Shown here one piece after another: positions 25,242-60,239 of a stretch of DNA of 64,000 bases. The position numbers and the translations under genes are program-made. The notes under the pieces were generated by a model. It did not search any database, was not told the DNA's origin, and was given only the letters and a program-made list of their open reading frames with translations. The stretch's first letter is position 1; every line of letters begins with the position of its first letter. Source of the stretch: Squalus acanthias (taxonomy: Eukaryota); contig JASTWF010000088.1 in the NCBI GenBank assembly GCA_030390025.1, positions 62,001-126,000 on the forward strand, given 5' to 3'.

Positions 25242-25712
25242 CTATTCCCTCGTGGGCAATTGGCCACTGAGTTGGCACAATTCTGAAAGGGTCAGATCCC
25301 AACTTACTTCTTTATCTTCGTGTTCATATACTAGTCGTTTTTCCCTGTTTGTCGTCCCTTCTGTGTACAGATGTTTGGCAACTATGGCTGCCATCTCAAC
25401 ACACCTGTATAACCCCATACTAACACCTGTTTTAGACAGGGTACAATCGGTGACATTCCCTGGATTACTACTGATATTAGAAGTATCACTTCCGCCTTCT
25501 GCCCGCCACCCCCACCCTCGCTTGGCATCCGAAACCTCCACCTTCAGTGGTCTTCTGAACTGTGGGGGCGCTGTTGGGAGGACTAGATCATCCTTGTCAT
25601 CATCACTACTAGGTTCCTCCTCGTGAGTGCTGAAGGACAAGGTTGCCACTCTAACTTTTAATTCTTTAATCTTTCTCTTGTTCTCTGTTCTTCCCATCTC
25701 TCCTCTCTCCAT
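25242..25712 (-). pseudogene. gag-like remnant of an older LTR element into which the ERV inserted
   Basis: Coiled-coil-like stretch, acidic patch and PTAP late-domain motif (LPTAPPQ); related sequence continues past 36094. Confidence 0.4.
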
Positions 25713-26049
25713 TGCCTTACCACCACTCTATCCTTGGTTCCCTGTGACAAATTCCATAGTTCTTGATGAGCTATTTTGGTATCATCCAATTTTCCCTGCG
25801 TCTGAACTATTGTTTCAGCTGGGCACATAATTGAGTTATTACCTGGTGCATCTCCAACTGTTGGATAGCGGCTAATCTACGTTCTGCCTGTACAGCACCC
25901 AATTTGTTTTTAAATCTCTCTTTGTGCCTAAAGAGTCTGAACCTGGCTATTCTGTTTAGTAAATTTCTCAATCAAACTATTTATTATCTGCACCATTGCC
26001 ATTATGCAGTTGGCCTTTTTTGCTTTCTTATTTTTTTCATCTATATTTC

Positions 26050-26473: not shown

Positions 26474-27025
26474 TGTTGTGGAGAAAATTAGATTCTCAGA
26501 GTCTGTGTAAAGTCCAAAAACACATAGTTTATTGACAAAGTACTTTGGGAGAAGGAGTCAAAGGTCCCCGTGACCTAATGTAACCTCCTCTCATCTAACC
26601 TTTGGTTATTACGGCTTATATTCAGTATTTCTGGCTACATGCCATCATACATCGATTTCCATCCAATTACATTGCATTACATTAATCACCTGATTATATT
26701 TTGCCTTATTTATATTTATTTGGCAACAATCATAAAAGCAGTTACATCTTGTTATGCTTTTTTTGATCAAGGTTAATTTCACAATTTACTACTGTATGTT
26801 ATCTGTGATTGGCACCGTGCCTATGGTTTCTAGCTAACTTTGTAAAAGGCCTCTTTCAATACCTTCCAGTAGACACTGAATCCCACACTGAATCCTCCCC
26901 AAGAGTCTATTTGGCAGCTGTAGTCGTATCTATTCCTTATCTTGTTTTGCAAAACCTTCACTGCACATGGTTTTATTACGAATTCTGCAGAAATTGAATT
27001 TAACCATTTCAAATTAACCCTTTCA
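26474..27025 (-). repeat. ERV 3' LTR (552 bp)
   Basis: - strand TGAAAGGG...CAACA; AATAAA (tttatt at 26528); preceded by PPT aaacaggagggac (27026-27038). Confidence 0.95.
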
Positions 27026-27198: not shown

Positions 27199-28776
27199 TT
27201 ACATAAAAGTGCCATCTCCTTCCTCCTCCCATAGCAGCATCATGGGGGCCACTTTTGCTGCCCCCACAATTGATTGTTTACACACGCATTTTAATAGTAA
27301 TATTATAGAATACATAATCAAGATTACAATGAAGAACAAAATCAATCCTTGTGCTATTGATGTCCCCAACATCCCTAGCCACCTAGTTGCCCAGCTCCAG
27401 AGGGTAAGTGCTGGAGGTTGCTTTAATTTCTTTATCTCCTGTTGTATATGCTCAGCCAGATTAGTTATATTTTCTGAGTTGTCTGGAATGTAGGTACAAC
27501 ATTCTGACCCTATTATTGCGCACGTTCCTCCTTCTTTGGCCAGAAGGTAATCGAGGGCCATCCTATTCTGAAGGGTTACTGTTCTTAAAGCGACCATCTC
27601 CGCATTAACGTGTCTCAAAGCTTCGGCTGTGTCGTTGGCTACTTGCTCTAACACCGCCGCTATGTTAATAGATTCTCTTGCTAACTTCCCCGATCCATAC
27701 CAGGGGAAGGCAATAGCGAAGCACCTTTCGGTTTCTGTGATTGCTCTTTTCGTGCGCAAAGTTAGGGTTTTAGTAATTCGAGTATACGGGATTACATATC
27801 CCATGTAACATGACCCTGTCCAGGACTGGGGCAACCATGGATATGCCTTGTGGCCGCATATAAAATAGGTACCGTTATAGGCGGTGAGGGATTGTACTGT
27901 TTCGGGGCTCCATCTCTGTATGAAACTACTGCCACTATTGGTGAGATTTTTGAACGAGAGTCTGGAACTGTTGGCGTTCTTATTTAAGTTCCAAGACTGG
28001 GAGCAACGACTCCATCCCATCTCTGTCCCCTTTTCTCCTTTCTTTAGGTTCCTGATCATGCATATCGCTCCCTGGGGTCTACCTACCCCTGAGGTATTTG
28101 TTAACATCAAAGACGGGGGTGGTTGAGTACGATTGTATTTGGGCTGATACCACCCCTGGAAGGTGGTCAGGTTGTAACCTGACGATTGCCATTCCTTTTT
28201 ATCCCCACTCACATCCACCTTATAGGTCCCTCCTTTAGTTTGAGCTCCCATCCTGAGACCATTCCTGGAAGAGTTTTGATTTAAATACCATGCTGCCATC
28301 TCTGACTCATTAAACGGTATTGGTCTTAAAGGGATCCCTTCCTGTGCATGTATAGGAACGTGTACACATACCCAACATTTAGATACATTACTTCGTTTTG
28401 CATAAGTATAAGACATATACAGAAATGTGTTTACATTTAATTCTCGTTTCAATCATCTGTTTGATTTCTCTTTTTGATATTTCTGGGCTGTGGGACACCG
28501 TAAGTCAACTAGGCAAGGAGTATCCCCGCATGGGACAGTCCAATTACTCCTGCCAGTTATATAAGTTCTTGAACCTTTGGTAAGCCGGGCTGTAGTGTTG
28601 GTTTCTCGCTCCAGCCTCCACTCCTCTCCGTCTCTTTCATCAGAGGCTGGGCAGTAAATCGTATCTTGGTCACACAATCTTATTGGATCTTGTCTCCGAA
28701 GAAGGCACTTGTATTTCAACGAGGCAATGTCCGTAGCGCATATTGCGATTACACTAATACACATAAGCAATTTCAT
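27199..28776 (-). pseudogene. env: ERV env, about 525 codons, one in-frame TGA at 28453-28455
   Basis: Signal peptide MKLLMCISVIAICA, CWVC (CXXC), RTKR furin site, ISD LQNRMALDYLLA, CX6CC (CAIIGSECC) and TM helix; the two ORF-track pieces are in the same frame. Confidence 0.9.
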
Positions 28777-28879
28777 CTTATTACTCTAAATTAACAACGT
28801 CCCAAAGGCTATATCGCCAACCTAACTATTTGTTGCTTGTAGATTCTGTTCTTCCTGTGAGGGTGTAATAATACAATTG

Positions 28880-29161
28880 TTAGTTTGGTTCTCCGATCAC
28901 AACCATTTGGATTTCCTCCCTTACTACCGGTCGGAGTTGATGTTGGCGGGACTGTTCCCATACATACTTCAGGATATAACCTAAGGTGTATCCTATTAGA
29001 AAAATGCATATAGTCCAAACCAGCGCTTGTACCAGCGCCCATTCGGATTCTTTATACTGTCTGGCATACTCTTCACTTTCTGTGAACGGTATTTGTTCTG
29101 GTGTAGCCATTTCTATGTTTGTGAAGGGTTGTAGGCTTTTAACTGTGTCCAGTGCTTCCAT
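28880..29161 (-). CDS. Putative ERV accessory single-pass membrane protein (76-93 aa)
   Basis: ATGs at 29161 and 29110 in good Kozak context; hydrophobic WALVQALVWTICIFLIGYTLGYILKYVW; fills the pol-env gap. Confidence 0.55.
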   Translation of the reverse strand: MEALDTVKSLQPFTNIEMATPEQIPFTESEEYARQYKESEWALVQALVWTICIFLIGYTLGYILKYVWEQSRQHQLRPVVREEIQMVVIGEPN

Positions 29162-32100
29162 CGTCCCATGCCCTTTATATCAATGCAAGCACACGTATCT
29201 CCGCTGATAAGGATTTGATATGGCCCCGACCATTTAGGGGCAAATGTGATTCCTGGCTTCCCTGGCAAGCTTTTAACCATGACCTTAGTCCCTGCCGGGG
29301 GAACGTATGGAAGCGCAGTTAATTCCCAATCCTTGTCTTTCTCTTCCTGCCTTTCCCGAGTTTGTTGTCGCATCTCTTTTAACTGATTACTTAATTCCAA
29401 GACGTACCGGCGGAGTCTATCTTTTAAAGGTCCTACGTCCTCCCCTCCGGTTATTATACCGTGTGGAAGCCGCATTGCCCTTCCTGTCATTAGCTCATAT
29501 GGTGATAAGCCTGTGGTCCGGTTTGGAGTTGCTCTTAATTTCATTAACACGGTTGGTAGCATATCTACCCATCGTTGATGCTTTTCCCCTAATGCCTTAG
29601 CTAAGGCTGTTTTCAGGGTTCGATTCATTCTCTCCACCATCCCGGAACTCTGAGGATGGTAGGGGATATGAAACTTCTGTTTGATGCCCATCCATGCGCA
29701 TATCTGTTTAACTATGGCTCCTGTAAAGTGAGTGCCCTGATCTGAGTCAATTTGAATTGGTACTCCCCATCTGGGAATTATTTCCTCTGCCATTATTCGT
29801 GCTACAGTGGTGGCAGTGCAATTCCGGGTGGGGAACGCTTCGACCCACCTTGTGAATTGGTCTATAATCACCAGGCAGTACCTGCGTCCCCTTGAGGTGG
29901 GTAGTGGCCCAGTGAAGTCTATCTGCATGTTCTCCCATGGTCCCCTTGGTCTCGGCTGGTGGGCCATTCGTATCTTAACTGGCCGTCCCGGATTATGTTG
30001 GGCACACGTTATGCATCTCTGGCAATGTTTCGCCACATCTCTTCCCAACCCCGGCCACCACCATTCCTTGCCTATTAATTCAATCATTGATCCCCGCCCG
30101 GTATGGGCATTTCCATGATGTAATTCTAAGAGTAACTGCCTAATACAGGTAGGGGCTATCACCTTTCCCTCTTTTCGCCATATGGCCTCTCTATCCGGTC
30201 TCCCTCCTGCATGGTACCATTCCTGCCTTTCTCCTTCTGAGGTATCTTTGTGTAGTTTACTAATATTTATTTCTTCCACCTGAACACTGGCTACACTTTC
30301 TTCGATGGTCTCTTGTTCGAGAGCCTGTTGTGCAGCCAGGTCGGCTGCATGATTACCCTCCTGTTCTATACTCTGTATCTTTTGGTGCGCTTTTATTTTC
30401 ATTACTGCTGCCTGCGTTGGGGCTTTTGCCGCTTCTAGGAGGTCTTCTATACGTTGTTGGTGCTTAATATGATCCCCTCCTGTTGTTACGAATCCCCTCC
30501 TTCCCCAAGCTGTCATGTAATCATGTACTACCCCAAACGCATATCTACTATCTGTGTAGATGTTTACAGTTCTGTCTTTAGCTAATTCCAGGGCTTTCGT
30601 TAGGGCTACTATCTCTGCCACTTGTGCCGAGAGTCCCCCGTCTAACCTTCCAGATAACTCAGTTTCCAACTGGCCATTAACAACTGCCCACCCGGTTCGT
30701 GGTGTTCCGTTAATATACTTTCGGGATCCATCCACATAAAGGGTAAGCTGAGCTTCCTCCAGTAGTTCATCCTGTATTGGGCTACTATCAACTTCGTCAT
30801 CTACATCCGCACATTCATGGGGTTCTCCCATCCCTAGAATACCTTCTGCTGGGTTCTCCCCGGTGTCCCGAACGATTTTTACTGATTCATCTTTGGGTAT
30901 CAATACAGCTTCCCATCGCGCCCTACGCATGTTTGACACTGACCTCAATTTGTTGTTATTTAACATTTCTACCAACGTATGTTTGGTGTGCAGGGTGATA
31001 TCCCCGGTCATTACTGTGGGTTCGCTCACCCTCACAGCCCATGCTGCACAATCTAATGCTGCTACACACCGTGACAGCCCTGCAGCCACCGGTGACTGCT
31101 GGGTGGAATAGTATGCTACCGGTCGTTTTCTGTCTCCATGCTGCTGGGTAACGACTGCAGCATAGAATCCTCCCTCATTTTCACAGTGTATATGGAATGG
31201 CTTTTTCATATCGGGTAGCCCGAGTCCCGGGGCTGTTATCAATGCCTGTTTTAATTTTCCATATGCTTCCTGTTGCTCATGTCCCCATTCAATGAGGGTG
31301 TTACTGGGGTTTCCCCCTTTTACGAGCCTCTGAATCGGTTCCGCTATCGCTGCGAAATTAGGTATAAAGTTCCTACTATAATTAAAAAGACCCAGGACTT
31401 TTCGGACTCCTCTAACTGAGACCGGTCGAGGCATCTCTTGTATTGCCTTTCGACGGTCACTAGGCATTGTCCTGATCCCCTGGGATATTTGTTGTCCCAA
31501 GTAAGTAACAATGCTCTGTCCAATCTGAGCCTTCCTGGGGTTTACTTTAAATCCACCCTTTTCTAGTGCTTGTAGGATTACACCCAGGGCTGCAGCATGC
31601 CCCTTTTCATCCTCTGATGCTATTAACAGATCATCTACATATTGTAATTCAGTGCTACGATACGGGGAAAGATCTATAGGTTCTAATAATGAACTCATTA
31701 CCCGATGAAATATTGCTGGACTATTGTGGAATCCCTGTGGCAATCGGGTCCACGTGTACTGTTTATTCCCCACGGTGAAGGCGAACTTACTCTGGGACTC
31801 CGGGTCCAAGGGCAAGGACCAGAATCCGTTGGCTATGTCCAATACTGTGAATATTTTGTGCTCCATACTCAAACCGTTTAAAATAGTGGCCGGGCTGGCC
31901 ACTATTGGGTGTAATTTTGGAGTTACCTTATTTAGGGCTGTGTAGTCAATAGTCAATCGATATGACCCATCTGGCTTCTTTACTGGCCACGCAGGGGAAT
32001 TGGTTGTACTTTCTGTTGCCCTAATTATTCCTCTTTCCTCCAAATCCCGTACTATCTTTAACACAGCTTCCTGTGCTTCTGGCTTAATGGGATATTGTCT

Positions 32101-32658: not shown

Positions 32659-34827
32659 TCAGCGGTCATTTCCCTGGTCCTTGACAAGTTGCAAAAACCT
32701 CTGATATTCTTCGGGGCTCAGTCTAGGACCCTGATTTCCCGACCCCATATTTTCCCGCTTTGGGCCCCAGCAGTTGTTGGCGCGGTGTCCCGGCTTGCCG
32801 CAATTACCGCAAGTCGGGATACTTTGTTTGGGACTCCTACACTCCTTAGCCATATGTCCCATCTTCCCACAATTGAAACACGCCCCTCTCTTTGGCTGGG
32901 AGTTTCTTTGCTGAACTCCGACTGCTCCCACCTTTTCTTGTTTAATAACCTTTCCTCGCTCTCCTTCTGTTCCATCTATCTGACAAGCCCATTTAACTAC
33001 CGCATCGTAAGTGTCAGCCGTAACTACCCCCATTTTTAGTATCTTTTGGTGTTCTGAGGACAGACGATCTTTGTACATTTTTACAAATACCGGGTCGTCC
33101 CTTTGGGGGTTTTCCTGTCCCGAGGATTCCTGATATTGGTACCAGAGCCATTCCCCATACGAATTTGAATTTTCTCCCTTCTTCTGTTGTATCTGCATTA
33201 TTAAACCCCAATTTGGTGACGCAGCCCCCATCGTTTCCTGGACCGCTCTCTTGAACTCACTCCTCATTGTGTCCCGATTGGCTTGGGTTTCACTTGCTGT
33301 TGGACACCAAGTGCCATTTCGGAAATTATCTGGTAATGCATTCCACTTGTCTCTTGGGCACGTGGCACGAACTATCTGGTGGACATCCCTTTCATGCATA
33401 TTATGTATATCGTATAATTCTTCCAATTTTTCCCAAAATTCCACATTTCGTTTTCTTGGCTGTAATGTTCCCAAATCTTGATTTATCATTTGTTTTTCGG
33501 CGGGGGTAAATGCCTGATACCTAATTCTTGCGGCACGAGGACTACCTCCCACAGTCCGTATTATGGGTGCTGCCTTTTTAGTGATTGGCCCAAAAATTCG
33601 TGAGGAAGCCTTCGTGCGAGGGTAAGGCTTCCCCGCGATCTCTCTCTGCGCGTTGGCTTTTTCAGTCCCAGCTCACACGAACTTGATGTTCTGGACAGCA
33701 GCTGTGCAGGGCATCCGTATCCCACAGGCGCAGTTAGTTCGTGCGAGCTGTGGGATCACGTGACTCAGTTAGAGCCAATGGCAGCACACCATCTTTCATT
33801 CATAGCTTTCACATAAGTGCTGTGAAAGCTATGAATACTATACCCCCCCAAAAGAACAGCTAAACCTCAATTAAATTTAAAAAAAAACCATCACATTAAT
33901 AAAATAAGTATAGTTAAATAAATTAACTATTTTAAACAAAAAATTAAATTTTTGAAAAAATTTAAAATCTTTTAAAAAGTTATAAAAATAAACTTACCTG
34001 TCTTTAAAGTCTCTAAAAAAGATATACCTGTTAAAAAAAATTCAAAAAAATACTTAATTAACTACTTACCTTGTTAAAAGAGGGTCTTACGCCTCTTTTT
34101 TTTATGTGTAAAATCTTCCATACTTACCTGCGCGTTCAAAGCACTAAGTGCACTGCGTGCGCGCAGCCTGTAGTGCGCACACGGTTCACTTAGGAACCGC
34201 CCCCTTTTGCATTCACCAAGTGCCGGTTTTCAGCGCATGCGCAGTGCATGCAGAAAACCGGCAATTGGAGAAAGAATACGCGAGAGTACACAGTGCGTAC
34301 TCTCGCGTATCAACACTAATTTTTGGGCCATTATCTTTTCATCTTCATCATCCCCTTCGCTAAAATTATCTACCGGGGGTGCCGAAGCTGATACGGCATA
34401 TGGGGGGGGGGGGTATGTCATTTTCCTCACCATATCTTCTAACCCCCGCGCCAGCACTCAAGCCTGCCTGTTGTTCATTCCAGAGTTCACTTTTATCCAT
34501 TCTATATCCATCCTTTAATTTCTGTCCTGTCCTTAAGTATTCATTCTCCTGTTGTAGCTCTAAGATTTTCTCATTGTGTCTCATCAAGCCCACATGTAGA
34601 TCTCGCACCTTCCTGGTCACTACGACCAGTTGGTGTACCAAGATCACTCCTGCTTTCTTAATCTTTTTCTGTTTCTGTCTCATCCACCACTCCCTCTGAG
34701 TGACAGGTGACTGGAGCGGATCCCATCCGTCCTTAATCATCTTTTCCACCATACCCTTCCGGTCATCTGCATAGAACCTAGTAAGGGACCCCTCTGGCCC
34801 CCAGTCTAGTCCTTTCCCCGATGCCAT
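32659..34827 (-). pseudogene. gag: ERV gag, 473 aa after removing the MITE and one G from the G12 run
   Basis: PPPY late domain, MHR-like QIQQKKGENSNSY and two CCHC knuckles; the frame is restored across the MITE. Confidence 0.9.
33587..34329. mobile_element. Harbinger-type MITE, copy 2, inserted in gag
   Basis: TIRs ggcccaaaaatt / aatttttgggcc; ATT TSD. Confidence 0.9.
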
Positions 34828-35519: not shown

Positions 35520-35537
35520 ACCCTGCTCGCAGCGCCA
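35520..35537 (-). promoter_or_regulatory. Primer-binding site, tRNA-Ser-like
   Basis: TGGCGCTGCGAGCAGGGT 3 nt after the 5' LTR; complementary to ACCCTGCTCGCAGCGCCA, close to the vertebrate tRNA-Ser 3' end as recalled. Confidence 0.8.
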
Positions 35538-35540
35538 AAT

Positions 35541-36093
35541 TGTTGTGGAGAAAATTAGATTCTCAGAGTCTGTGTAAAGTCCAAAAACACATAGTTTATT
35601 GACAAAGTACTTTGGGAGAAGGAGTCAAAGGTCCCCGTGACCTAATGTAACCTCCTCTCATCTAACCTTTGGTTATTACGGCTTATATTCAGTATTTCTG
35701 GCTACATGCCATCATACATCGATTTCCATCCAATTACATTGCATTACATTAATCACCTGATTATATTTTTGCCTTATTTATATTTATTTGGCAACAATCA
35801 TAAAAGCAGTTACATCTTGTTATGCTTTTTTTGATCAAGGTTAATTTCACAATTTACTACTGTATGTTATCTGTGATTGGCACCGTGCCTATGGTTTCTA
35901 GCTAACTTTGTAAAAGGCCTCTTTCAATACCTTCCAGTAGACACTGAATCCCACACTGAATCCTCCCCAAGAGTCTATTTGGCAGCTGTAGTCGTATCTA
36001 TTCCTTATCTTGTTTTGCAAAACCTTCACTGCACATGGTTTTATTATGAATTCTGCAGAAATTGAATTTAACCATTTCAAATTAACCCTTTCA
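35541..36093 (-). repeat. ERV 5' LTR (553 bp)
   Basis: Same as 26474-27025 except one T indel and one C/T change seen by eye. Confidence 0.95.
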
Positions 36094-41112: not shown

Positions 41113-44100
41113 GGGGGAGAAATTGGGTACCTTAGCGCCTCCCGTCACTTGCCGGTTTGCGGCGACACTAACTACTACCGTCACGCCCTCCTGCAGCCGG
41201 AGATCGTAACGTCATCCAGCCGCGCATCACCCCGGTAACGCCCCGGACCGGAAATTCATTCTCGACCCCTGCCTCAGCACCTGCCATTAGGAACGGCAAG
41301 TAGAGGAGGCAGTTTGCAGTCAGCTGGAAGCTGCAGGAGTGCTATTTAAAGGAGTGAACTTTCAGGTTTTTTTAAGTCAGCAAACAATGCTGCCTTGTCA
41401 CTTTGACAGAAGCAGACAGGTGTTTTGACCCATTTGAGGTTTTCCTACTTGAAGGAGTTTTGCTCCAGACAAAAATTTATCAGGTTCATTTGTCTTACTT
41501 TTGATACTGCAACATTTCCAACACTTAATGAGGGCTGTATTGGCACGGGACCTCGCCCTCCAGCGTCACCGTCGGAGGCGGAGAGAAAGATTGGAAAACA
41601 TGGCCAGAGAGAGGAGGGCCAACAGGGCTCTCAACGGGAGACCTTACCCTCCCAGGGTATTCCGGGAGCAGTTCTCCTACAGTCATCTGTCAGAGGAGCA
41701 GTGCCTTAGTGGGCTCCGCTTCAGCAAGGAGGTGGTCACAGAGCTCTGCCACCTCCTGCAGCCGGAGCTCCAGCCTCAGCTCAGGACAAGGACGTCTCTC
41801 TCAGTGGCAGTTAAGGTCACAGTCGCTCTCAATTTCGACGCCAGCGGCTCCTTCCAGGCTTCAACAGGGGATACTGCAAACATTTCACAGTTCGCCGTCC
41901 ATTGCTGCATCCGGGAGGTAACAGACGCTCTCTACAGAAGGAGAAGGGAGTACATATCATTCCCCATCACCAGAGAGAAGCAAGATGAATGCTCATGTGG
42001 CTTTGCAAGAATAGCGGGCTTCCCCATGGTTCAGGGCGCCATTGACTGCACCCACGTGGCATTGCGGCACCTCATCACAATGCAGAGGTGTTCCGCAAAC
42101 ACAAAGGCTACCACTCTCTGAACATGCAGTTGGTGTGCGACCACAGACAGCTCATCCTCGCCGTCAATGCCCGCTATCCTGGCTGCAGCCACGATGCATT
42201 CATCCTGCGATAGTCCCAGCACTGTTCCACCCACCACATGAATCTCATGGCTGGCTGCTCAGAGACAAGGGTTATCCATTCACCACCTGGCTGATGACAC
42301 CCCTCCGCAACCCCAACACTCCTGCTCAGCACGCATACAATGAGAGCCATAGTGCCACCAGGAACCTGATCGAACAGACTATCAGGGTGCTAAAGCAATG
42401 GTTCCGCTGCCTTGACCGCTCTGGAAGAGCCCTGCAGTACTCCCCAATCGAGTCTCCCTTTTCATCGTTGTGTGCTGTATGCTGCACAACCTGGCCATTC
42501 TGAGGGCCCAGCCATTGCCATCAGGGATTGCAGGTCCACCTCAGGAGGCGGAAGAGGGAGAGGAGGAGGAGGTGGAGGATGAAGAGCAGCAGCAACGTAG
42601 GAGGGAGCCACTCAATCTTGCTTCTGTTCATAATCGCCTCATAACACAGCGCTTCCAATAAATGAGATAGCACATGGCATTTGCGCAGCACAACCACATC
42701 ATTACAGACAGCTCGCAGCCCCTATCACCGGGCAAAGGTCAAATGAGAAACATATCAAAATTTGCTACGTCGAAATAAACATTTATTATTCTGCACAACT
42801 CTCTCTTATCAAACACAACCAATAATAAACAAACACAACAATTTATCAACAAACACAACTGGTTCTTAGCAAACGGAACTTATTTCTTACCAAACTGAAC
42901 AATATATTTACAAACACATCAATTTATTTACACATACTCCCCCATTTGCTGTTAACATATTGGCCCAGAAATTAGACTTCGATGGTTGCCGCAGGGGTAA
43001 GGATCCGGCGCGATCCTACCTACCGCGCCTGCCTTTATGTTTCGGGCCCACACGAACTTCTGGTCCTGGGCCTCACCCTGGTGCCGGCGCGCAGTGTGTG
43101 CGTGTCCCAGAGGCGCAGTTAGTTCGATGCGACCTCTGGGATCACGTGGGCCATGGAGAGCCAATGGCAGCACACCATCTTTCATTCATAGATTTGACAG
43201 GAGAACTGTCAAAACTATGAATACAAATTGCCCCCAAAAGAACAGCTAAACCTCAAATAAATTTTAAAAAACCCATCACATTAATAAAATAACTATAGTT
43301 AAATAAATTAACCCCTTTAAACAAAAATTTAAATTTTTGAAAAAATTTAAATTCTTTTTAAAAGTTATAAAAATAAATTTACCTTTCTTTAAAGTCTCTA
43401 AAAAAGATAAACCTGTTGAAAAAAATTTAAAATACTTAATTAACTACTTACCTTGTTAAAAGGGGGTCTTACGCCTCCTTTCTTCATGTGTAAAATCTTC
43501 AATACTTACCCCTCGCGTTGAAACCTGAAAAAATACCTAAGTGTGCTGCGTGCGCACAGCCTGTAGTGCGCATGCGGTTCACTTAGGAACCGCCCCCTTA
43601 GCAATACCGGAAGTGCCGGTTTCCCGCGCATGCGCAGTGCATGCAGGAAACCGGCACTTCGGGACCGAATACGCAAGAGTACACAGTTCGTACTCTCCCG
43701 TATTCAGCCGAAGTTTTGGGCCATTATTTACTGGGCCTTCCTCAATTGATTCCCTCCCTTTTGCACTTCCCCCCTCTCAACCCTACTGCTCCTCCGTAAT
43801 GTGGCCCCAGTAGCTGCAGCAAGGCTGGTCGAAGGCTGCTGAGTCTGGGAGCCAGAGACTGCAGATGGCCTTGCAGGATGCCCTTGACCAGCTCTGGGCC
43901 TGGAAGGCCCGGCTGCAGACTGCACCAACTCTGCATGGGTGGCAGCAGTCTGGGCTGGCTGGGTTACAGGCTGCGGCAAGTGCAATGACGGATTGGCAGT
44001 GGTGGGAACAGGAATGCTGTGATCCTGAGAGAGGACAGCACCTTCCTGCTCGACCGACACACTGCCACACCCCCAGGGAAGAACCACAACATCTGGAGCA

Positions 44101-49803: not shown

Positions 49804-49906
49804 ATGCGGAGATGCCGGTGTTGGACTGGGGTGGACAAATGTGAGAAGTGGCACAACACCAGGTTATAGTCCAACAGCTTTATTTGAAATCACAAGCTTT
49901 CGGAGC
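49804..49906 (-). mobile_element. Terminal segment of a Penelope-type repeat (the Tx1 target), cut within its hammerhead motif
   Basis: - strand gctcc-GAAA-GCTT-gtgatttcaaataaagctgttggactataacctggtgttg...cagtccaacaccggcatc. Confidence 0.6.
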
Positions 49907-50883
49907 TGCTGACTGAGGAGCAGAAGCAGCAGAGTGGTGGTCTCTGTGGCCAGGAAGAGGAGAAGGAGAAGGAGACCAGACAGCAGACCACCACCAACAA
50001 CCAACAACTACAACTGAGGTGCCTGGAGAGAGAGGACAGGAGAGGAGAGGAGAAAGAAAAGGGAAGGCCAAGGCCATCAACAACAGAGGAGAGGCCTTTC
50101 CACACTGCCTCCTCAATTGGCCTCCATTTTAGGAGAGGGAGAGAGGGGAGAAAACAACACAACATCCATCATCTGTTTGGAAGGAGGAAGAAGGAAGGAA
50201 AGAACAGCTACAGGTGGGTGTGATTCTGGGGCACTCTCCCAGAGACTTTGTTTTGTAGGTGGGGGGAGGAAAGAAGAAAAAGAAGAAGGCCGGAACATCC
50301 AAGGGGTGTGTGTGTGTGTGTGTGGCTTCTGTAAAAGCTAGGCCGCACACACCATATTAAACACCCCTTTCCCATTGCCTGACCTGGGGCAGCTGGAGCT
50401 GCCTAGGTGAAGTTCCCCAATTAATTATATCCAATTGGGCATCGTTAAGACCTGGTGCAGGACTGAGCCTGGGCATCTCCAGCTATCCCAGGTGAAGACA
50501 TCTTCTCCCCCCACCAGAAGACCACCACCAAAGACTTTTTTACATCGGAGAGTGCACCCCCCTGCCAACACCCACCCACCCACCATCCTGAGTGGCGACC
50601 CTGCCCTTGCGGCTTCCCTCCTTCCCACCCCCCTCTCTCTCTCTCTCTCTTTGTCTCTTGTCTCTCTCTGCCTCTCTCTCTCTAAGAGGCACCTCATCTA
50701 TTTTTAATTAAGTACCCATTGAGCAGAGGGGAGAAGGCCCCTCTCCCAATTCAATCAACTAAAGGGAGAGGTGTGCCTTCAATTTAAGAGCTCCCTCTGC
50801 TCAGGGAAAAAAAAAAACCGAGGCCATTAACACCTTCAGGCCTGTGACTTGGGGTGAGTGTAGCCCTTAAAGAACCCTCCATT

Positions 50884-53041
50884 ATGGCGAGTACATCTTC
50901 GTCGGTGGCGGGGGCAGCGAGGACGTACGCGAGCGTGGCAGCCGCGGCCACGGCCGCAGCCACGAGTCCTCCTGTTACCCCGTCACCTTTTACCCTCCTT
51001 ACGAGGAAGAATGGGGTCAAGAGCTACACTCACCCCAACATGACTATAGAGGCGTGCGTTAAAGCCATGGCTGGGGTTGTCGGCCCTTCAGCCATCGTCG
51101 CCGCCTCTAAAATGTACGGCAAGGCTGTGTTCTTCCTGGGGTCGGAGCGGGCGGTGTCCCTGGCCATCGAGAAGGGGCTCACCGTGGGCGGGACCTTCCT
51201 GCCGGTGGACCCCCTTGAGGCCACCGCGCAAAGGATTGTGGTTTCCAACGTCCCGCCCTTTGTTCCGGGTGAGCTCCTCCTCCCCCACCTACGTCAACTG
51301 GGGGAGGTGAGGTCGGGGATCACACCCATCCCGCTCGGCTTCCGGGAAGCCAGCCTTCGGCACGTCTTCTCCTTCCGGCGCCAGCTTTTCGTCCGGCTGG
51401 CGCGGGAGGAGGACGCGGACGGCGCGTTCACGGTGCTCCACGGGGGGACCGCCCACCGCGTCTTCTGGACCTCGGACGGCGTGCGGTGCTACGCCTGTAA
51501 GGAGGTGGGGCACGTCCGCAAAAACTGCCCCGCCTCCAAGGCCGCCACGACACCTGGCGCGGCCGGGGTTGGCGCCGCCGCCCCCCCTCCCCCTGATACT
51601 GTCCGCGCGTCGACGGCGACGGATGCGCGGTCGAAATCGGAGGCCAACTCCACCACGGCCTCCGGCGGGGAGGAGGGAGAGCGTCCGGGGGGAAGGAAGG
51701 CGCGTAGGAAAAATAAACACATAAGGGCGGATCCCCTCGCGGAGGAAACATCTGAATTGGCCGAACTCACGCCCGAGTATATCGCGGAGTTGGTCGGGAC
51801 GCATGAGACTGGGGGGATCCTCGTGCCCGGGCCCGTGACCGTGACCGCAACTGCTAAGGCAGCTGAATCAAGACCTGCGGCCGGGCTCGGGCCCGAGGGG
51901 CCCAAGAAACCCAGTCGTCGGAAAGGGGCAGAGAGGGAGGCCCCAGCAGACATGGAGGCCTCCCCCTCTCCGGGCCCCAATTTGTTAAAAAGAAAGCTCC
52001 GCCCCCAGCAGGAGGACTGCGAGGAGGAAGGTCCCTCCGCAAAAGGGGGGCAGTCGCCCGCCGCGGGTGCTGCGCCCCACCCCACCACCGTCATCGTCGC
52101 GCGCGATCGGCAGGGGTCGTCTGTCCCTCGGGAGGGTGAGGCAGCCGAGTCTGTCCGACCTGTGCCTCCCGGGGATGGGGAAGAGACCCTGCCCGTGGGG
52201 GGGGGCGCGGAACAACCCGCGGAAGAAAATGTAGAAACTGAACCGTTGCTCCTCGCCGGGTCGGGCGTCCTGGGGACTGGGGCGGGCGAGGCCAAAGAGG
52301 CTGAAGCCAAGCCCGCCTTTTATAACCCAGACATCTCCCAGGGACTGCTCGACCTGGTGGAGGAGTGTAGCAATCCCCAGCCCGCTGGGTCGGAGGTTGG
52401 TGGCGGGGAGACGGAAAGCCCCCTGACTCCGTCTCTGTTGTTGGCGCCGGACGTGCTGGAGGAATTTGGGATTATTTTCTCCCCGGTTTCTCCGGTCGCC
52501 CCGGCGCCTGAGGCGGGGGGGGGGCCCCGAACCGCCGCCGCCGCCTCCCGGCCCGGCGCCCCTGAAGGAGCCCAGGGTGGACTCCTCTGCCACCGATCCT
52601 GGGGGTGGGATCGTGACGGAGGCGGGGCCGGCCGGTGCGGCCGAGCCGTTCGCTGCACCCTGTGTGACGGACGGGTTGGCCGCCGGTGACGACCTCCCGG
52701 AGGAGGACGGGGACTCGGTGGGGGGCGCTGAGGAAGATTTGGAGTCCATCAGCAGCGAGGCGATGGACGCCCTCGTGCCCTTCACCGACTCTCCCCTCAT
52801 CCCCGTAGGGGAACTCCGGGATTTTATGGCCGTGAGCCAGGGTCGTCACAAGAAGATCCGGCTGGCCCTCGACAAGTGGTCGGAGCTGACGCTGCTCGTC
52901 GTGTCCGTCCGCGCCGCCGTTAAAATCATGGGCGCGGACAAGGACGTTGACCGGCTCGAGCTGCGTCGGCTCAAGACGTTCCACACTGGGCTGCTGAGGG
53001 AGTGGCGGTCGTCAGTGACCGCCCTCCCTCCCCTCCGTTAG
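50884..53041 (+). CDS. Tx1 ORF1 (CCHC knuckle), about 718 aa, with a +1 G in the run at 52515-52524
   Basis: IVAASKMYGKAVFFL, SNVPPF, SFRRQ and CYACKEVGHVRKNC. Confidence 0.85.
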
Positions 53042-53066
53042 GTAGAGGTTGCACTATGCTTCTGAG

Positions 53067-56000
53067 ATGAAGATAACCATAGCCAGCCTCAACATCAACG
53101 GCAGCAGGGAGGCGCGCCGTAGATTCAATAACTTCTCGGTCCTTCGGGATGGGAAATATGCGGTGTGCTTCCTGCAAGAAACCCACACCGTTCCGGGAGA
53201 CGAGGCCACGTGGCTCCTGGAGTGGCAAGGAGGGGTCAGCATGAGTCACCTCTCCAACAATTCCTGCGGGGTGGCTGTCTTGCTGGCCCCGCTTTTTCAG
53301 CCGGAGATCTTGAGGGTCAAGGAGCACGTGCCGGGCCGCTTGCTCCAGGTCACTGTTCGCCTGGGAGGCGTGCCGCTCCATTTAGTGAACGTGTACGCCC
53401 CCCGGACCGGTGCGCAGCAAGTGCGCTTCTTCGGAGAAGTGTCCGCTCTTCTGGGCTCCATCGACGTGGGCGAGTGCGTCATCCTCGGGGGGGATTTCAA
53501 TTGTACCCTCGAGGCGCGGGACCGGTCGGGTCCCCCGCGAAGCCCGGCGGCGATGGAGAAGTTGCGGGACCTGGTCGGGTCCTTCGACTTGGTGGACGTC
53601 TGGCGAAATCTCCATCCCGACTCCAGCGCCTTCACGAGCGTGAGGTCTGGAGGAGGAAGGTCCAGAATCGACCGCCTTTACATTTCCCGGGCGTACGTCT
53701 CCTGCGTTCCGGCGGCTTCCATGCGGCCGGTGCCGTGCACGGACCACCACCTGGTGTGGGCGGAGCTCGCTCCGCTGCGCGCGCGGGGGGGGTCCGCGTA
53801 CTGGCATTTTAACAACCTGCTGCTGGAGGACGCGCGGTTCCGGGATTCGTTTCGCCGGTTCTGGGCCGACTGGAGAAGGAAGCGGGGAGGCTTCCCCTCC
53901 TTGAGGCTATGGTGGGACGTGGGCAAGGCTCACGTCCGCGTCTTCTGTCAGGAGTACGCGAAGGGGTCGACCAAGAGGCGGGAGGCCCGGGTCGGGCGAT
54001 TGGAGAAAGAAGTGCTCGACCTGGAGTCCCGTCTCGGTCAAGTCGTCGAGGACCCGGCCCTGCGGAAGGTGTACGAAGAGAAGAAGGGCGCGCTGAAGGA
54101 CCTGCAGCTGGTCGGGTCCCGAGGCGCGTACGTGAGGTCGCGGATCCAGCTCCTGCGGGACCTGGACCGCGGCTCCCCCTTCTTCTACTCGCTGGAAAAA
54201 AGACGGGGGGTCCGTAAGCAGCTCTTGGAGCTGCTGGCCGACGACGGATCTCTGGTCTCGGATCCGGAGGGCATCAGCGCGGAGGCCCGGGCCTATTACG
54301 GGGCTCTGTTCTCTTCGGATCCGTCCAGCGAGGATGCGCGCAGAGTTTTGTGGGAGGACCTGCCGAAGGTCGGCCCGGAGGGCGCCGAGAATCTAGAAGC
54401 TCCGCTAAGCCTGGCGGAGCTGACCGGCGCCCTGCGCCAGCTCTCGAGGGGCAAGTCCCCGGGGCTGGACGGGCTGACCGTGGAGTTCCACAGGGCGTTC
54501 TGGGACGTCTTGGGGGACGACTACGCGCGGGTCCTGGGGGAAAGTCTGGCGACCGGGGAGATGCCCCTCTCTTGGCGCAGGGCGGTCATCGTCCTGCTGC
54601 CCAAGAAGGGCGATCTCCGCCTACTTAAGAACTGGCGCCCGGTCTCCCTCCTCAGCACGGACTACAAAATTTTCGCCAGGGCTATGTCTGCTCGCCTTGG
54701 CACCGTGCTGGCCCGCATGATCCACCCCGACCAGTCCTACACGGTCCCGGGCCGGAGTATCCACGATAACATCCATCTGGTCCGGGACCTGGTCCACCAT
54801 TCCCAGAGGGCTGGTCTGTCGGTCGCCTTCCTTTCCCTGGATCAGGAGAAGGCGTTCGACAGGGTGGATCACGAGTATCTTTTCGGGACTCTGCGCGCGT
54901 TCGGGTTCGGGACGCATTTCGTCGCCCGGATCCGACTTCTGTACGCCGCCGCGGAGTGTCTGATTAAAGTTAACGGGTCTTTGACGGCGCCCCTTCGCTT
55001 CGGGAGGGGGGTGCGTCAGGGATGCCCCATGTCCGGTCAGTTATACGCCGTTTGCGTGGAGCCTTTCCTGCGCCTCTTGCGGAAGAGGTTGACGGGACTG
55101 GCTCTGCAAGGGCCGGGCGTGGAGGTGGTCCTCTCGGCTTACGCCGATGACGTGCTCCTCGCGGTCACGGATCCCGTCGACTTGCGGAGGATGCGAGAAT
55201 GCCAGCAGATTTACTCGGACGCATCCTCCGCCAAGATCAACTGGGAGAAATGTTCTGGACTCCTGGTGGGCCCATGGCGGGTGGACTCCCTGCCGGAGGA
55301 GTTCGGGCCTTTCGCCTGGAGCACCACGCACCTCCTCTACCTGGGAGTCTACCTCAGCCCGGCCGAGGACGCCTGGCCGGCGAACTGGCAAGAGCTGGAG
55401 GCCAAAGTCACCGCTCGCCTAGGACGCTGGACAGGACTGCTCCGAGTGTTGTCCTACAGGGGTCGAGCGCTGGTCATAAACCAGCTGGTGGCCGCCATGT
55501 TGTGGTACCGGTTGGTCACTTTGATCCCTCCCCCTGCGTTTGTCGCCAAGATGCAGAAGAAGCTCGTCGACTTCTTCTGGGACAAAAGGAAGCACTGGGT
55601 CTCTGCCGCGGTTTTGAGTCTCCCGCTTAGGGAGGGCGGTCAGGCGCTGGTGTGCCTTCGCACCCAGGCGGCGACTTTCCGTCTTCAGACGCTGCAGAGA
55701 TACCTGTACGTGGAGAATCCTCCTAGGTGGCGTGCGCTGGCGACGTATTTCTTCCGCCAGCTGCACGGCCTCAATTACGACACGCAGCTCCTGTTTGTGA
55801 GAGTGGGTGGCACGCGTGCCAGCCTGCGGGAGCTGCCTGTCTTCTACCAGGAACTGCTATGGGTTTGGAACAGCGTCGCCTCCGAGCGCAGTTCTCCCCC
55901 GTCAGGAGCGGCGGCCGTCCTTCGGGAGCCGCTGTTCAGGAATCCGCACCTCCACGACCGCGGGTTCGGCTGGCTGGCGGAGGGCAGGGCTGTGCCCGGT

Positions 56001-56966
56001 AAGGTGACCAGAGTCGGGGACCTGCTCGATGGCGGAGGAGCGGGCTGGATGGCGCCGGAGGAGTTGGCGAGGCGCATGTCTTGGGTCAACGTCCGGCTCG
56101 CGGTCAAAGCCATCGAGTCGCTAAAAGTGGCACTGGGCCCCGTCTCCACTAGGTGTGTCGAGGAGGCTCAAGCACGTGGGGCGATCCCGTCCGAACTGAC
56201 CCCCGTTCGGACGGAATTCCTTATCGGCGCCCGGCCCCGAATCCTCCCTCGGGAGCCGCCGCCTCACCACTTGAGCCTTCTCGGAGAAATGCCCTCCGTG
56301 CCCTTTCAATCCGCACGGAGGCGTTTCCTGTACGGGCTGCTCCTGCACACTCTCCACTTTGCCATCTTCGTCTGCCGTCCGGACACGCCTTGGCGTACCA
56401 TCCTGCCGTCCGGCGGAGGCGAAGGTCCCCATTGGAAGGCTCTCTACGCGGGAGTCTTCCCTTGTTCTATTGGGGACTTGGCCTGGAGGGTGTTGCACGG
56501 AGCAGTCCCGTGCAATAGGATTTTAAGTAGGTTTACGGACTCCCAGGCTGCTTGCCATTTTTGCGGCCTGGAGGAGTCCGTTTATCACATTTATGTTGAA
56601 TGTGAGAGGTTGCAGCCCCTCTTTCATTATTTGAAGGGGCTGCTCCTCAATTTCTGGTTGCACTTCAGCCCCACGCTCCTGATCTACGGTCACCCGGTGC
56701 GGAGGGGAGCGGGTAGGTCGGAGGACCTCCTCGTAGGACTGCTCCTGGGCCTGGCCAAGAAAGCCATTAATTGGTCCAGGCAGCGGGCGGTCGAGGGGGT
56801 CGTTCGGCCCGATTGCCTGCCTCTCTTCCGCGGCCATGTTCGCGCCCGGGTGGCCCTGGAGATGGAGCACGCGGTGTCCGCCGGCACGCTTGAGTTTTTC
56901 CGCGACCGGTGGGCACCGCGGGGACTGGAGTGCATCGTCACCCCGGACTTTCAAATTTTAATTTGA
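53067..56966 (+). CDS. Tx1 ORF2 (APE endonuclease-RT-zinc finger), 1299 aa, intact
   Basis: SLNING, LQETH, GGDFN, RIDR, TDH, GVRQGCP, YADD and CHFCGLEESVYHIYVEC. Confidence 0.95.
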   Translation: MKITIASLNINGSREARRRFNNFSVLRDGKYAVCFLQETHTVPGDEATWLLEWQGGVSMSHLSNNSCGVAVLLAPLFQPEILRVKEHVPGRLLQVTVRLGGVPLHLVNVYAPRTGAQQVRFFGEVSALLGSIDVGECVILGGDFNCTLEARDRSGPPRSPAAMEKLRDLVGSFDLVDVWRNLHPDSSAFTSVRSGGGRSRIDRLYISRAYVSCVPAASMRPVPCTDHHLVWAELAPLRARGGSAYWHFNNLLLEDARFRDSFRRFWADWRRKRGGFPSLRLWWDVGKAHVRVFCQEYAKGSTKRREARVGRLEKEVLDLESRLGQVVEDPALRKVYEEKKGALKDLQLVGSRGAYVRSRIQLLRDLDRGSPFFYSLEKRRGVRKQLLELLADDGSLVSDPEGISAEARAYYGALFSSDPSSEDARRVLWEDLPKVGPEGAENLEAPLSLAELTGALRQLSRGKSPGLDGLTVEFHRAFWDVLGDDYARVLGESLATGEMPLSWRRAVIVLLPKKGDLRLLKNWRPVSLLSTDYKIFARAMSARLGTVLARMIHPDQSYTVPGRSIHDNIHLVRDLVHHSQRAGLSVAFLSLDQEKAFDRVDHEYLFGTLRAFGFGTHFVARIRLLYAAAECLIKVNGSLTAPLRFGRGVRQGCPMSGQLYAVCVEPFLRLLRKRLTGLALQGPGVEVVLSAYADDVLLAVTDPVDLRRMRECQQIYSDASSAKINWEKCSGLLVGPWRVDSLPEEFGPFAWSTTHLLYLGVYLSPAEDAWPANWQELEAKVTARLGRWTGLLRVLSYRGRALVINQLVAAMLWYRLVTLIPPPAFVAKMQKKLVDFFWDKRKHWVSAAVLSLPLREGGQALVCLRTQAATFRLQTLQRYLYVENPPRWRALATYFFRQLHGLNYDTQLLFVRVGGTRASLRELPVFYQELLWVWNSVASERSSPPSGAAAVLREPLFRNPHLHDRGFGWLAEGRAVPGKVTRVGDLLDGGGAGWMAPEELARRMSWVNVRLAVKAIESLKVALGPVSTRCVEEAQARGAIPSELTPVRTEFLIGARPRILPREPPPHHLSLLGEMPSVPFQSARRRFLYGLLLHTLHFAIFVCRPDTPWRTILPSGGGEGPHWKALYAGVFPCSIGDLAWRVLHGAVPCNRILSRFTDSQAACHFCGLEESVYHIYVECERLQPLFHYLKGLLLNFWLHFSPTLLIYGHPVRRGAGRSEDLLVGLLLGLAKKAINWSRQRAVEGVVRPDCLPLFRGHVRARVALEMEHAVSAGTLEFFRDRWAPRGLECIVTPDFQILI

Positions 56967-58062
56967 TTTATTAAGTTTCATTTCAAGTTTTAATTGATTT
57001 ACCGTAAATTTGTGTTGTCCAACCAAAAAGAGCAACACCAGGTTATAGTCCAACAGCTTTATTTGAAATCACAAGCTTTCGGAGCTGCTGACTGAGGAGC
57101 AGAAGCAGCAGAGTGGTGGTCTCTGTGGCCAGGAAGAGGAGAAGGAGAAGGAGACCAGACAGCAGACCACCACCAACAACCAACAACTACAACTGAGGTG
57201 CCTGGAGAGAGAGGACAGGAGAGGAGAGGAGAAAGAAAAGGGAAGGCCAAGGCCATCAACAACAGAGGAGAGGCCTTTCCACACTGCCTCCTCAATTGGC
57301 CTCCATTTTAGGAGAGGGAGAGAGGGGAGAAAACAACACAACATCCATCATCTGTTTGGAAGGAGGAAGAAGGAAGGAAAGAACAGCTACAGGTGGGTGT
57401 GATTCTGGGGCACTCTCCCAGAGACTTTGTTTTGTAGGTGGGGGGAGGAAAGAAGAAAAAGAAGAAGGCCGGAACATCCAAGGGGTGTGTGTGTGTGTGT
57501 GTGGCTTCTGTAAAAGCTAGGCCGCACACACCATATTAAACACCCCTTTCCCATTGCCTGACCTGGGGCAGCTGGAGCTGCCTAGGTGAAGTTCCCCAAT
57601 TAATTATATCCAATTGGGCATCGTTAAGACCTGGTGCAGGACTGAGCCTGGGCATCTCCAGCTATCCCAGGTGAAGACATCTTCTCCCCCCACCAGAAGA
57701 CCACCACCAAAGACTTTTTTACATCGGAGAGTGCACCCCCCTGCCAACACCCACCCACCCACCATCCTGAGTGGCGACCCTGCCCTTGCGGCTTCCCTCC
57801 TTCCCACCCCCCTCTCTCTCTCTCTCTCTTTGTCTCTTGTCTCTCTCTGCCTCTCTCTCTCTAAGAGGCACCTCATCTATTTTTAATTAAGTACCCATTG
57901 AGCAGAGGGGAGAAGGCCCCTCTCCCAATTCAATCAACTAAAGGGAGAGGTGTGCCTTCAATTTAAGAGCTCCCTCTGCTCAGGGAAAAAAAAAAACCGA
58001 GGCCATTAACACCTTCAGGCCTGTGACTTGGGGTGAGTGTAGCCCTTAAAGAACCCTCCATT

Positions 58063-60214
58063 ATGGCGAGTACATCTTCGTCGGTGGCGGGGGCAGCGAG
58101 GACGTACGCGAGCGTGGCAGCCGCGGCCACGGCCGCAGCCACGAGTCCTCCTGTTACCCCGTCACCTTTTACCCTCCTTACGAGGAAGAATGGGGTCAAG
58201 AGCTACACTCACCCCAACATGACTATAGAGGCGTGCGTTAAAGCCATGGCTGGGGTTGTCGGCCCTTCAGCCATCGTCGCCGCCTCTAAAATGTACGGCA
58301 AGGCTGTGTTCTTCCTGGGGTCGGAGCGGGCGGTGTCCCTGGCCATCGAGAAGGGGCTCACCGTGGGCGGGACCTTCCTGCCGGTGGACCCCCTTGAGGC
58401 CACCGCGCAAAGGATTGTGGTCTCCAACGTCCCGCCCTTTGTTCCGGGTGAGCTCCTCCTCCCCCACCTACGTCAACTGGGGGAGGTGAGGTCGGGGATC
58501 ACACCCATCCCGCTCGGCTTCCGGGAAGCCAGCCTTCGGCACGTCTTCTCCTTCCGGCGCCAGCTTTTCGTCCGGCTGGCGCGGGAGGAGGACGCGGATG
58601 GCGCGTTCACGGTGCTCCACGGGGGGACCGCCCACCGCGTCTTCTGGACCTCGGACGGCGCGCGGTGCTACGCCTGTAAGGAGGTGGGGCACGTCCGCAA
58701 AAACTGCCCCGCCTCCAAGGCCGCCACGACACCTGGCGCGGCCGGGGTTGGCGCCGCCGCCCCCCCTCCCCCTGATACTGTCCGCGCGTCGACGGCGACG
58801 GATGCGCGGTCGAAATCGGAGGCCAACGCCACCACGGCCTCCGGCGGGGAGGAGGGAGAGCGTCCGGGGGGAAGGAAGGCGCGTAGGAAAAATAAACACA
58901 TAAGGGCGGATCCCCTCGCGGAGGAAACATCTGAATTGGCCGAACTCACGCCCGAGTATATCGCGGAGTTGGTCGGGACGCATGAGACTGGGGGGGTCCT
59001 CGTGCCCGGGCCCGTGACCGCAACCGCCGAGGCGGCTAAATCAAGACCTGCGGCCGGGCTCGGGCCCGAGGGGCCCAAGAAACCCAGTCGTCGGAAGGGG
59101 GCAGAGAGGGAGGCCCCAGCAGACATGGAGGCCTCCCCCTCTCCGGGCCCCAACTTGTTAAAAAGAAAGCTCCGCCCCCAGCAGGAGAACTGCGAGGAGG
59201 AAGGTCCCTCCGCAAAAGGGGGGCAGTCGCCCGCCGCGGGTGCTGCGCCCCACCCCACCACCGTCATCGTCGCGCGCGATCGGCAGGGGTCGTCTGTCCC
59301 TCGGGAGGGTGAGACAGACGAGTCTGTCCGACCTGTGCCTCCCGGGGATGGGGAAGAGACCCTGCCCGTGGGGGGGGGGCGCGGAACAACCCGCGGAGGG
59401 AAATGTAGTACCGGAACCGTTGCTCCTCGCCGGGTCGGGCGTCCTGGGGACTGGGGCGGGCGAGGCCAAAGAGGCTGAAGCCGAGCCCGCCTTTTATAAC
59501 CCAGACATCTCCCAGGGACTGCTCGACCTGGTGGAGGAGTGTAGCAATCCCCAGCCTGCTGGGTCGGAGGTTGGTGGCGGGGAGACGGAAAGCCCCCTGA
59601 CTCCGTCTCTGTTGTTGGCGCCGGACGTGCTGGAGGAATTTGGGATTATTTTCTCCCCGGTTTCTCCGGTCGCCCCGGCGCCTGAGGCGGGGGGGGGCCC
59701 CGAACCGCCGCCGCCGCCTCCCGGCCCGGCGCCCCTGAAGGAGCCCAGGGTGGACTCCTCTGCCACCGATCCTGGGGGTGGGATCGTGACGGAGGCGGGG
59801 CCGGCCGGTGCGGCCGAGCCGTTCGCTGCACCCCGTGCGACGGACGGGTCGGCCGTCGGTGACGACCTCCCGGAGGAGGACGGGGACTCGGTGTTGGGCA
59901 ACGAGGACGATTTGGAGTCCATCGGCAGCGAGGTGATGGACGCCCTCGTGCCCTTCACTGACTCTCCCCTCATCCCCGTAGGGGAACTCCGGGATTTTAT
60001 GGCCGTGAGCCAGGGTCGTCACAAGAAGATCCGGCTGGCCCTCGACAAGTGGTCGGAGCTGACGCTGCTCGTCGTGTCCGTCCGCGCCGCCGTTAAAATC
60101 ATGGGCGCGGACAAGGACGTTGACCGGCTCGAGCTGCGTCGGCTCAAGACGTTCCACACTGGGCTGCTGAGGGAGTGGCGGTCGTCAGTGACCGCCCTCC
60201 CTCCCCTCCGTTAG
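58063..60214 (+). CDS. Tx1 ORF1, copy 2, with a +1 G in the run at 59370-59379
   Basis: Homologous to copy 1, with the frameshift in a different G run. Confidence 0.85.
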
Positions 60215-60239
60215 GTAGAGGTTGCACTATGCTTCTGAG

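Follow-up and report, generated by a model that had tools for sequence, protein, structure and literature searches.

Lentiviruses supply the best-known examples of small membrane accessory proteins encoded between pol and env. Vpu has an N-out/C-in topology and an ExxxLV string in its tail, is translated from a bicistronic mRNA shared with env, the start of which its ORF overlaps, and down-regulates CD4 and tetherin. According to the accessible part of PMC7764263, Vpu recruits beta-TrCP, and Vpu, glycoGag and S2 convergently antagonise host surface factors. Fish foamy-like ERVs carry acc3/acc4 and DrFV ORF-1 between pol and env; in the available passages of PMC5512871 and PMC5210030, these ORFs encode 334-465 aa, are under purifying selection and have no detected TM motif. 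MDG1 LTR retrotransposons encode sORF2/FAST-like single-helix membrane proteins of 63-107 aa, as described in the accessible text of PMC11952523. The genome of the snakehead retrovirus (SnRV), a complex virus, contains ORF1-3 and a 3'ORF (accessible part of PMC12193657), and SnRV-related ERVs with a gamma-type env are described, also in a shark, in the available sections of bioRxiv 2021.11.23.469661 and PMC4422223.

In the window, which is the whole 64,000-nucleotide stretch of Squalus acanthias DNA that was analysed, a provirus on the minus strand contains a 76-codon frame that occupies the gap between pol and env. This small ORF is probably a genuine, lineage-specific accessory membrane gene of a shark retrovirus lineage. 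The best explanation as a whole, to which we give an even chance, is that it encodes an accessory single-pass protein that re-routes a membrane protein. No prior report of this ORF is found in the open-licence literature, and supplements of the cited papers could list the family. A 76-aa membrane protein in a multi-species shark ERV family would be a compact probe for shark surface defences against retroviruses.

The provirus and the frame between pol and env

The features of the provirus are shown in Table 1. The two LTRs differ by one substitution and one indel (2/554 positions), and a 5-bp target duplication, AAAGG, flanks the provirus on both sides; the provirus is young. The primer binding site-like sequence presumably resembles the 3' end of tRNA-Ser. 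In this copy gag and env are broken, and pol is intact. The env stop is not general, because the contigs in all four sequencing runs compared below differ at that codon. Mobilisation of the already damaged copy in trans is conceivable, because its LTRs are near-identical despite the gag break, the 620-nt insertion and the env stop. At the gag stop, the sequence TGA-CTA-G (32661-32655, minus), which shares the frame of pol, forms a known readthrough context; a CUAG readthrough motif is mentioned in the accessible part of PMC13517186. At the other end of the provirus, a 69-aa Gly/Pro/basic ORF (27232-27023, minus) runs over the end of env, and its stop codon falls on the first three bases of the 3' LTR; its position is that of the SnRV 3'ORF, and it has no match among the fetched proteins or loci. 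Outside the provirus, a frame of 161 codons from stop to stop (25242-25727, minus), which encodes an acidic tract, has no Pfam family and no second copy within the window.

Table 1. Positions of the features in the window, with the evidence for each
Feature	Positions	Strand	Evidence or remark
5' LTR (TG...CA)	35541..36093	minus	99.6% identity to 3' LTR
Primer binding site-like sequence	35521..35537	minus	TGG start 3 nt beyond LTR end
gag 5' piece, ends early after C run	34366..34827	minus	153-aa ORF; L037 Gag N-terminus match, E 6e-5
Dispersed repeat inserted in gag	33716..34334		85% copy at 43101-43727
gag 3' piece, two zinc knuckles, TGA stop in pol reading frame	32659..33519	minus	Pfam zf-CCHC
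pol (PR-RT-RH-IN), intact, 1181 codons	29113..32658	minus	ORF list, Pfam
Acceptor-like site within pol, ill-suited to small ORF	29291..29321	minus	pyrimidine count rank 6/720 AGs
Optional 17-codon extension from ATG 29161, over pol end	29111..29161	minus	stop at 29131 in 4/4 runs
Small ORF, 76 aa	28880..29110	minus	ORF list, shuffles, 96% copy P0001
Predicted transmembrane helix, residues 25-47, GxxxG at 40-44	28970..29038	minus	hydropathy, motif scan, AlphaFold2
Candidate env branch point and acceptor, CTAAC includes ORF stop	28854..28883	minus	pyrimidine count rank 17/720 AGs
gamma-type env, own signal peptide, in-frame stop 28455-28453	27199..28776	minus	Pfam TLV_coat
3' LTR	26474..27025	minus	99.6% identity to 5' LTR

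The small ORF starts at ATG 29110 (G at −3, G at +4), which is located 2 nt past the pol TAG (29115-29113), the junction being TAG-AA-ATG, and ends at TAA 28882-28880, 103 nt ahead of the env ATG. A second ATG at 29161 (A at −3, G at +4) gives a form of 93 codons that ends at the same TAA. An intact ORF with these two ATGs in good context had been described from the sequence alone, and the presence and context of both ATGs are verified.

When the 336-nt spacer is shuffled 5000 times each as mono-, di- or trinucleotides, ATG ORFs of at least 76 codons are obtained in 0.7, 0.6 and 1.8% of the shuffles respectively. ORFs that also contain a hydrophobic window of at least 2.0 are obtained in 0/5000 shuffles under each of the three nulls, the thresholds being post hoc, set after the ORF was seen. 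Such an ORF is found in 1/380 real 336-nt tiles of the window. A chance origin of the 76-codon ORF is unlikely, because no shuffle under any null yields an ORF as long and as hydrophobic. This result and the retained strong start context argue against an incidental ORF, that is, against a spacer kept for the env splice signal or RNA elements, in which an open hydrophobic frame persists by chance and young age. We consider this alternative unlikely, but not negligible: no distant homolog and no codon signal are found, and the ORF stop codon falls inside the CTAAC branch-like motif ahead of acceptor 28854, all of which favour it. The close packing of the ORF between the pol stop and this motif is also counted in favour of a gene. 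The codon-usage test has no power (0.11 for the ORF versus −1.95 for a held-out env piece). The RNA fold around the junction of the pol stop and the ORF start gives a z of −0.11.

Acceptor-like sites were ranked by pyrimidine count over the 720 AG dinucleotides of the internal region. The sequence-only reading had proposed acceptors at 29291 and 28854 and a separately spliced accessory protein. Both sites exist, but 29291 is a poor acceptor for the small ORF, because AUGs at 29280, 29233 and 29169, two of them in strong context, come first and lie between this acceptor and both ORF starts. No joint or loose end at 29291 or 28854 is present among the 3 joints and 24/145 loose ends examined in the contigs, and the leader donor is outside the compared stretch. 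Translation of the ORF by restart at TAG-AA-ATG or from another acceptor would be likelier than translation from an mRNA spliced at 29291.

The predicted protein and its likeness to Vpu and FAST proteins

Residues 1-24 of the 76-aa protein contain six D/E and two K/R, its tail contains four K/R and four D/E, and its top 19-residue Kyte-Doolittle window is 2.04. These counts and the hydropathy bear out the initial description of an acidic N-terminus, one hydrophobic helix and a short charged tail. AlphaFold2 without an alignment gives one long helix (residues 9-58) with pLDDT above 90 across residues 21-50. The charges flanking the helix are −3 on the N side and +2 on the C side, and the product is predicted by the charge rule to be a single-pass membrane protein with N-out/C-in topology.

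Both Vpu and the product of the small ORF, the latter by prediction, are small, single-pass and N-out/C-in proteins encoded just upstream of env. The tail of the 76-aa protein contains the acidic-dileucine-like strings EEIQMV/EIQMVV, detected by motif scan, which are non-canonical and short and are comparable to ExxxLV of Vpu. Unlike Vpu, however, it has a longer acidic ectodomain and a shorter tail, its ORF does not overlap env, the DSGxxS beta-TrCP motif is missing from its tail, and the virus that carries it is no lentivirus, unlike HIV-1. YxxPhi, a myristoylation start and a polybasic patch are likewise not found in the 76-aa protein by motif scan. A Pfam search with the ORF gives nothing significant and no Vpu family at E≤1, and a fold search of the single helix against BFVD gives 0 matches at E≤0.001 and three at E of about 9. 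The comparison with Vpu had been called positional only, and the likeness is one of position and topology only.

A second comparison is that with the FAST/sORF2-like cell-cell fusogens. The product, with 76 aa, one helix and a predicted N-out/C-in topology, falls inside the range of 63-107 aa given for sORF2-like proteins in the accessible part of PMC11952523. However, it starts with MA, so that the MGxxxS/T myristoylation motif is absent, it has no adjacent basic pair and no juxtamembrane polybasic patch (net +2 over 15 juxtamembrane residues), its ectodomain is acidic, and the element has an env. A fusogen is therefore very improbable, and the small ORF belongs to neither the Vpu nor the FAST family by the tests run.

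The gene might be real and act by another mechanism, as an oligomeric viroporin or in support of Env trafficking or of virion release, and not as a host antagonist. The size and topology are like those of small viral channels, the polar residues Q28, C35 and T42 share one helix face, and GxxxG is present. The ESM Atlas leads, which are leads only, include influenza M2 and geminivirus movement proteins, but all of them score below 0.9, within the range of shuffled proteins. The ORF sequence has no usable match in this atlas, and no channel motif is known in it, so that we regard this alternative as improbable.

If the product is an accessory protein that re-routes a membrane protein, as we prefer, its translation would start at ATG 29110, either through re-initiation just past the pol stop or on a subgenomic RNA. 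According to the charge rule, the acidic N-terminus would be placed outside and the short tail inside. The helix would then bind a host or viral membrane protein, and the sorting-like motif of the tail would re-route the bound protein. This mechanism is proposed because of the analogy with Vpu, glycoGag and S2. By this analogy, trafficking-type modulation of a membrane protein is a possibility somewhat short of even, provided that the gene is real; a real gene that acts by Vpu-like trafficking modulation is, overall, rather doubtful.

Related copies and conservation of the frame

The sole protein homolog of the 76-aa ORF is P0001, which is 96% identical, and no distant homologs are found among 1.84 billion representatives. 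Another candidate, P0122 (E 3.6e-4), was rejected as a tandem-repeat protein. P0001 differs from the ORF at 3/76 residues and the env counterpart at 30/524, which neutrality fits as well. P0001 and P0123 are both from 2275-nt contigs, probably one contig; P0123 is an intact env of 525 aa that begins where the env in the window does. This result suggests that the ORF is separate from env and is not a broken env leader, because an intact env with the same start is probably located on the contig of P0001. Certain fish envs have long leaders (L055, P0144), a point in favour of reading the ORF as a detached piece of env (long leader) or of pol. However, pol is complete and the ORF is located past its stop in another frame, env begins at its own signal peptide both here and in P0123, and the ORF matches nothing among the fetched proteins and loci except P0001. 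A detached piece is therefore hardly credible.

Related copies of the element occur in several species. Parts of the region are contained in 20 sequencing runs (8 studies, five organisms), none of which has half of its words and none of which is on record as RNA; X11 and X12 are RNA by guess. Four of the 20 runs were compared over 28300-30100 at 80% likeness, and 32/248 contig pieces and 40/322 variant rows were examined. Among these pieces, at least six span the ORF body, three of them 96-98% and three 81-84% alike. The divergent pieces, which may represent one subfamily, differ from the ORF at 29/163 nt without gaps, at 30/156 nt without gaps, and at 29/180 nt with a single in-frame gap of 6 nt. 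Among the indels listed, none would break the frame in 28915-29110, although local alignments that end at indels favour gap-free pieces. An unplaced gap of 1 nt is present in one of the near-identical pieces; the 1-nt gap of X12 record 18 may be at 29158. Under a non-coding model, zero frameshifts at 29 substitutions have a p of about 0.03-0.31 if the indel ratio is taken as 0.15-0.05. The non-coding spacer has 5-nt insertions at 28828-28829 in three of the four runs.

The 31 variant rows annotated are those from 29082 upward, and 9 env rows were left out. The divergent relatives separated while replicating, because 21 of the 28 pol variants listed are synonymous. The row at 29113 indicates that the divergent copies retain the pol stop, and with it a purine at −3 of the ORF. 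A variant at 29131, which is synonymous in pol, creates a stop in the frame of the 17-codon extension. It is present in all four runs and closes the extension from 29161, which suggests that the 76-aa form is the conserved unit. One variant within the ORF is synonymous and one is not, and divergent copies may have stops in this frame, because these 2 are the ORF rows among the 40/322 examined. An incidental ORF is not readily reconciled with divergent pieces that hold the length of the frame while 5-nt insertions are present in the spacer and a stop in the 5' extension. The accessory membrane ORF proposed by the sequence-only reading is still the best reading, since the frame is separate from env, improbable by chance and kept in length at about 82% likeness, but the start at 29161 is not conserved.

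In each of the two runs guessed to be RNA, one contig departs from the window at 28914, a position in the tail of the ORF. This departure is absent among the loose ends examined for the DNA runs (24/145 in all). Because the contigs depart at a position where the window has no AG, a related copy without most of the ORF probably exists. An abundant related copy appears to lack most of the ORF, which suggests that copying within the genome does not require it, and the departure in two runs is a point in favour of an incidental ORF. The depth over the ORF body is low, but contig depth cannot rank genes.

Placement of the virus and its relatives

Over integrase, the nearest proteins of pol have 44-47% identity; few of those near the top are named, and these are from fish. 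The nearest named relatives of env are shark ERVs, which points to a cartilaginous-fish host. A careful RT tree was made from 41 rows chosen from a quicker first tree plus L056 and was rooted at the midpoint. The element is placed outside both the gamma/epsilon (class I) clade (100/99) and the foamy one (100/100). It falls into a loose, unresolved grade that includes L056, with which it has no supported pairing. The foamy-like ERV ORFs thus share the pol-env position with the 76-aa ORF, whereas the element itself is outside the foamy clade. Apart from two fish ERV contigs, L056 is the top one, and exogenous, among the 15 fetched loci by RT (231 bits, 40%). It has a 205-codon 3'ORF that overlaps the env end, from which we take it to be SnRV; L054 and L055 are presumably WDSV and SSSV. 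The gag-pol stop is in frame both in SnRV and in the element, but L056 has no ORF between pol and env.

Such an ORF is likewise absent in L054, L055 and the fish ERV contig L036. In L036 and L056 env overlaps pol. The RT identity of the relatives without the small ORF (L036, L056 and L038) is 40-51%. L038, the closest locus with downstream DNA, carries an unrelated 85-aa frame in its post-pol spacer, which is compatible with an incidental ORF. The small ORF is lineage-specific, because L054, L055, L056 and L036 have no ORF at this position and the frame of L038 is unrelated. The spacer of L038 (6012-6382) also contains a strong pyrimidine-tract acceptor-like site near 6250. When viral and metagenome contigs are scanned with the Pol pieces of the window, no close relative is found, the alignment-based scans giving reference retroviruses and distant fish ERVs only.

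If the preferred reading of an accessory protein is correct, the small ORF would have arrived at the Vpu layout by convergence. It is unlikely, though conceivable, that a cartilaginous-fish retrovirus of a lineage remote from lentiviruses evolved, on its own, a single-pass protein that antagonises host surface proteins in the manner of Vpu and is translated by restart directly behind the pol stop. If so, counter-defence genes acting at the membrane would be as old as the earliest jawed vertebrates.

Rfam and tRNA scans of the window, including 49854-64000, give no hits. The region 49854-64000 is GC-rich (56-67%) and contains a direct duplication with a spacing of about 7.17 kb, the copies being 96-100% alike.
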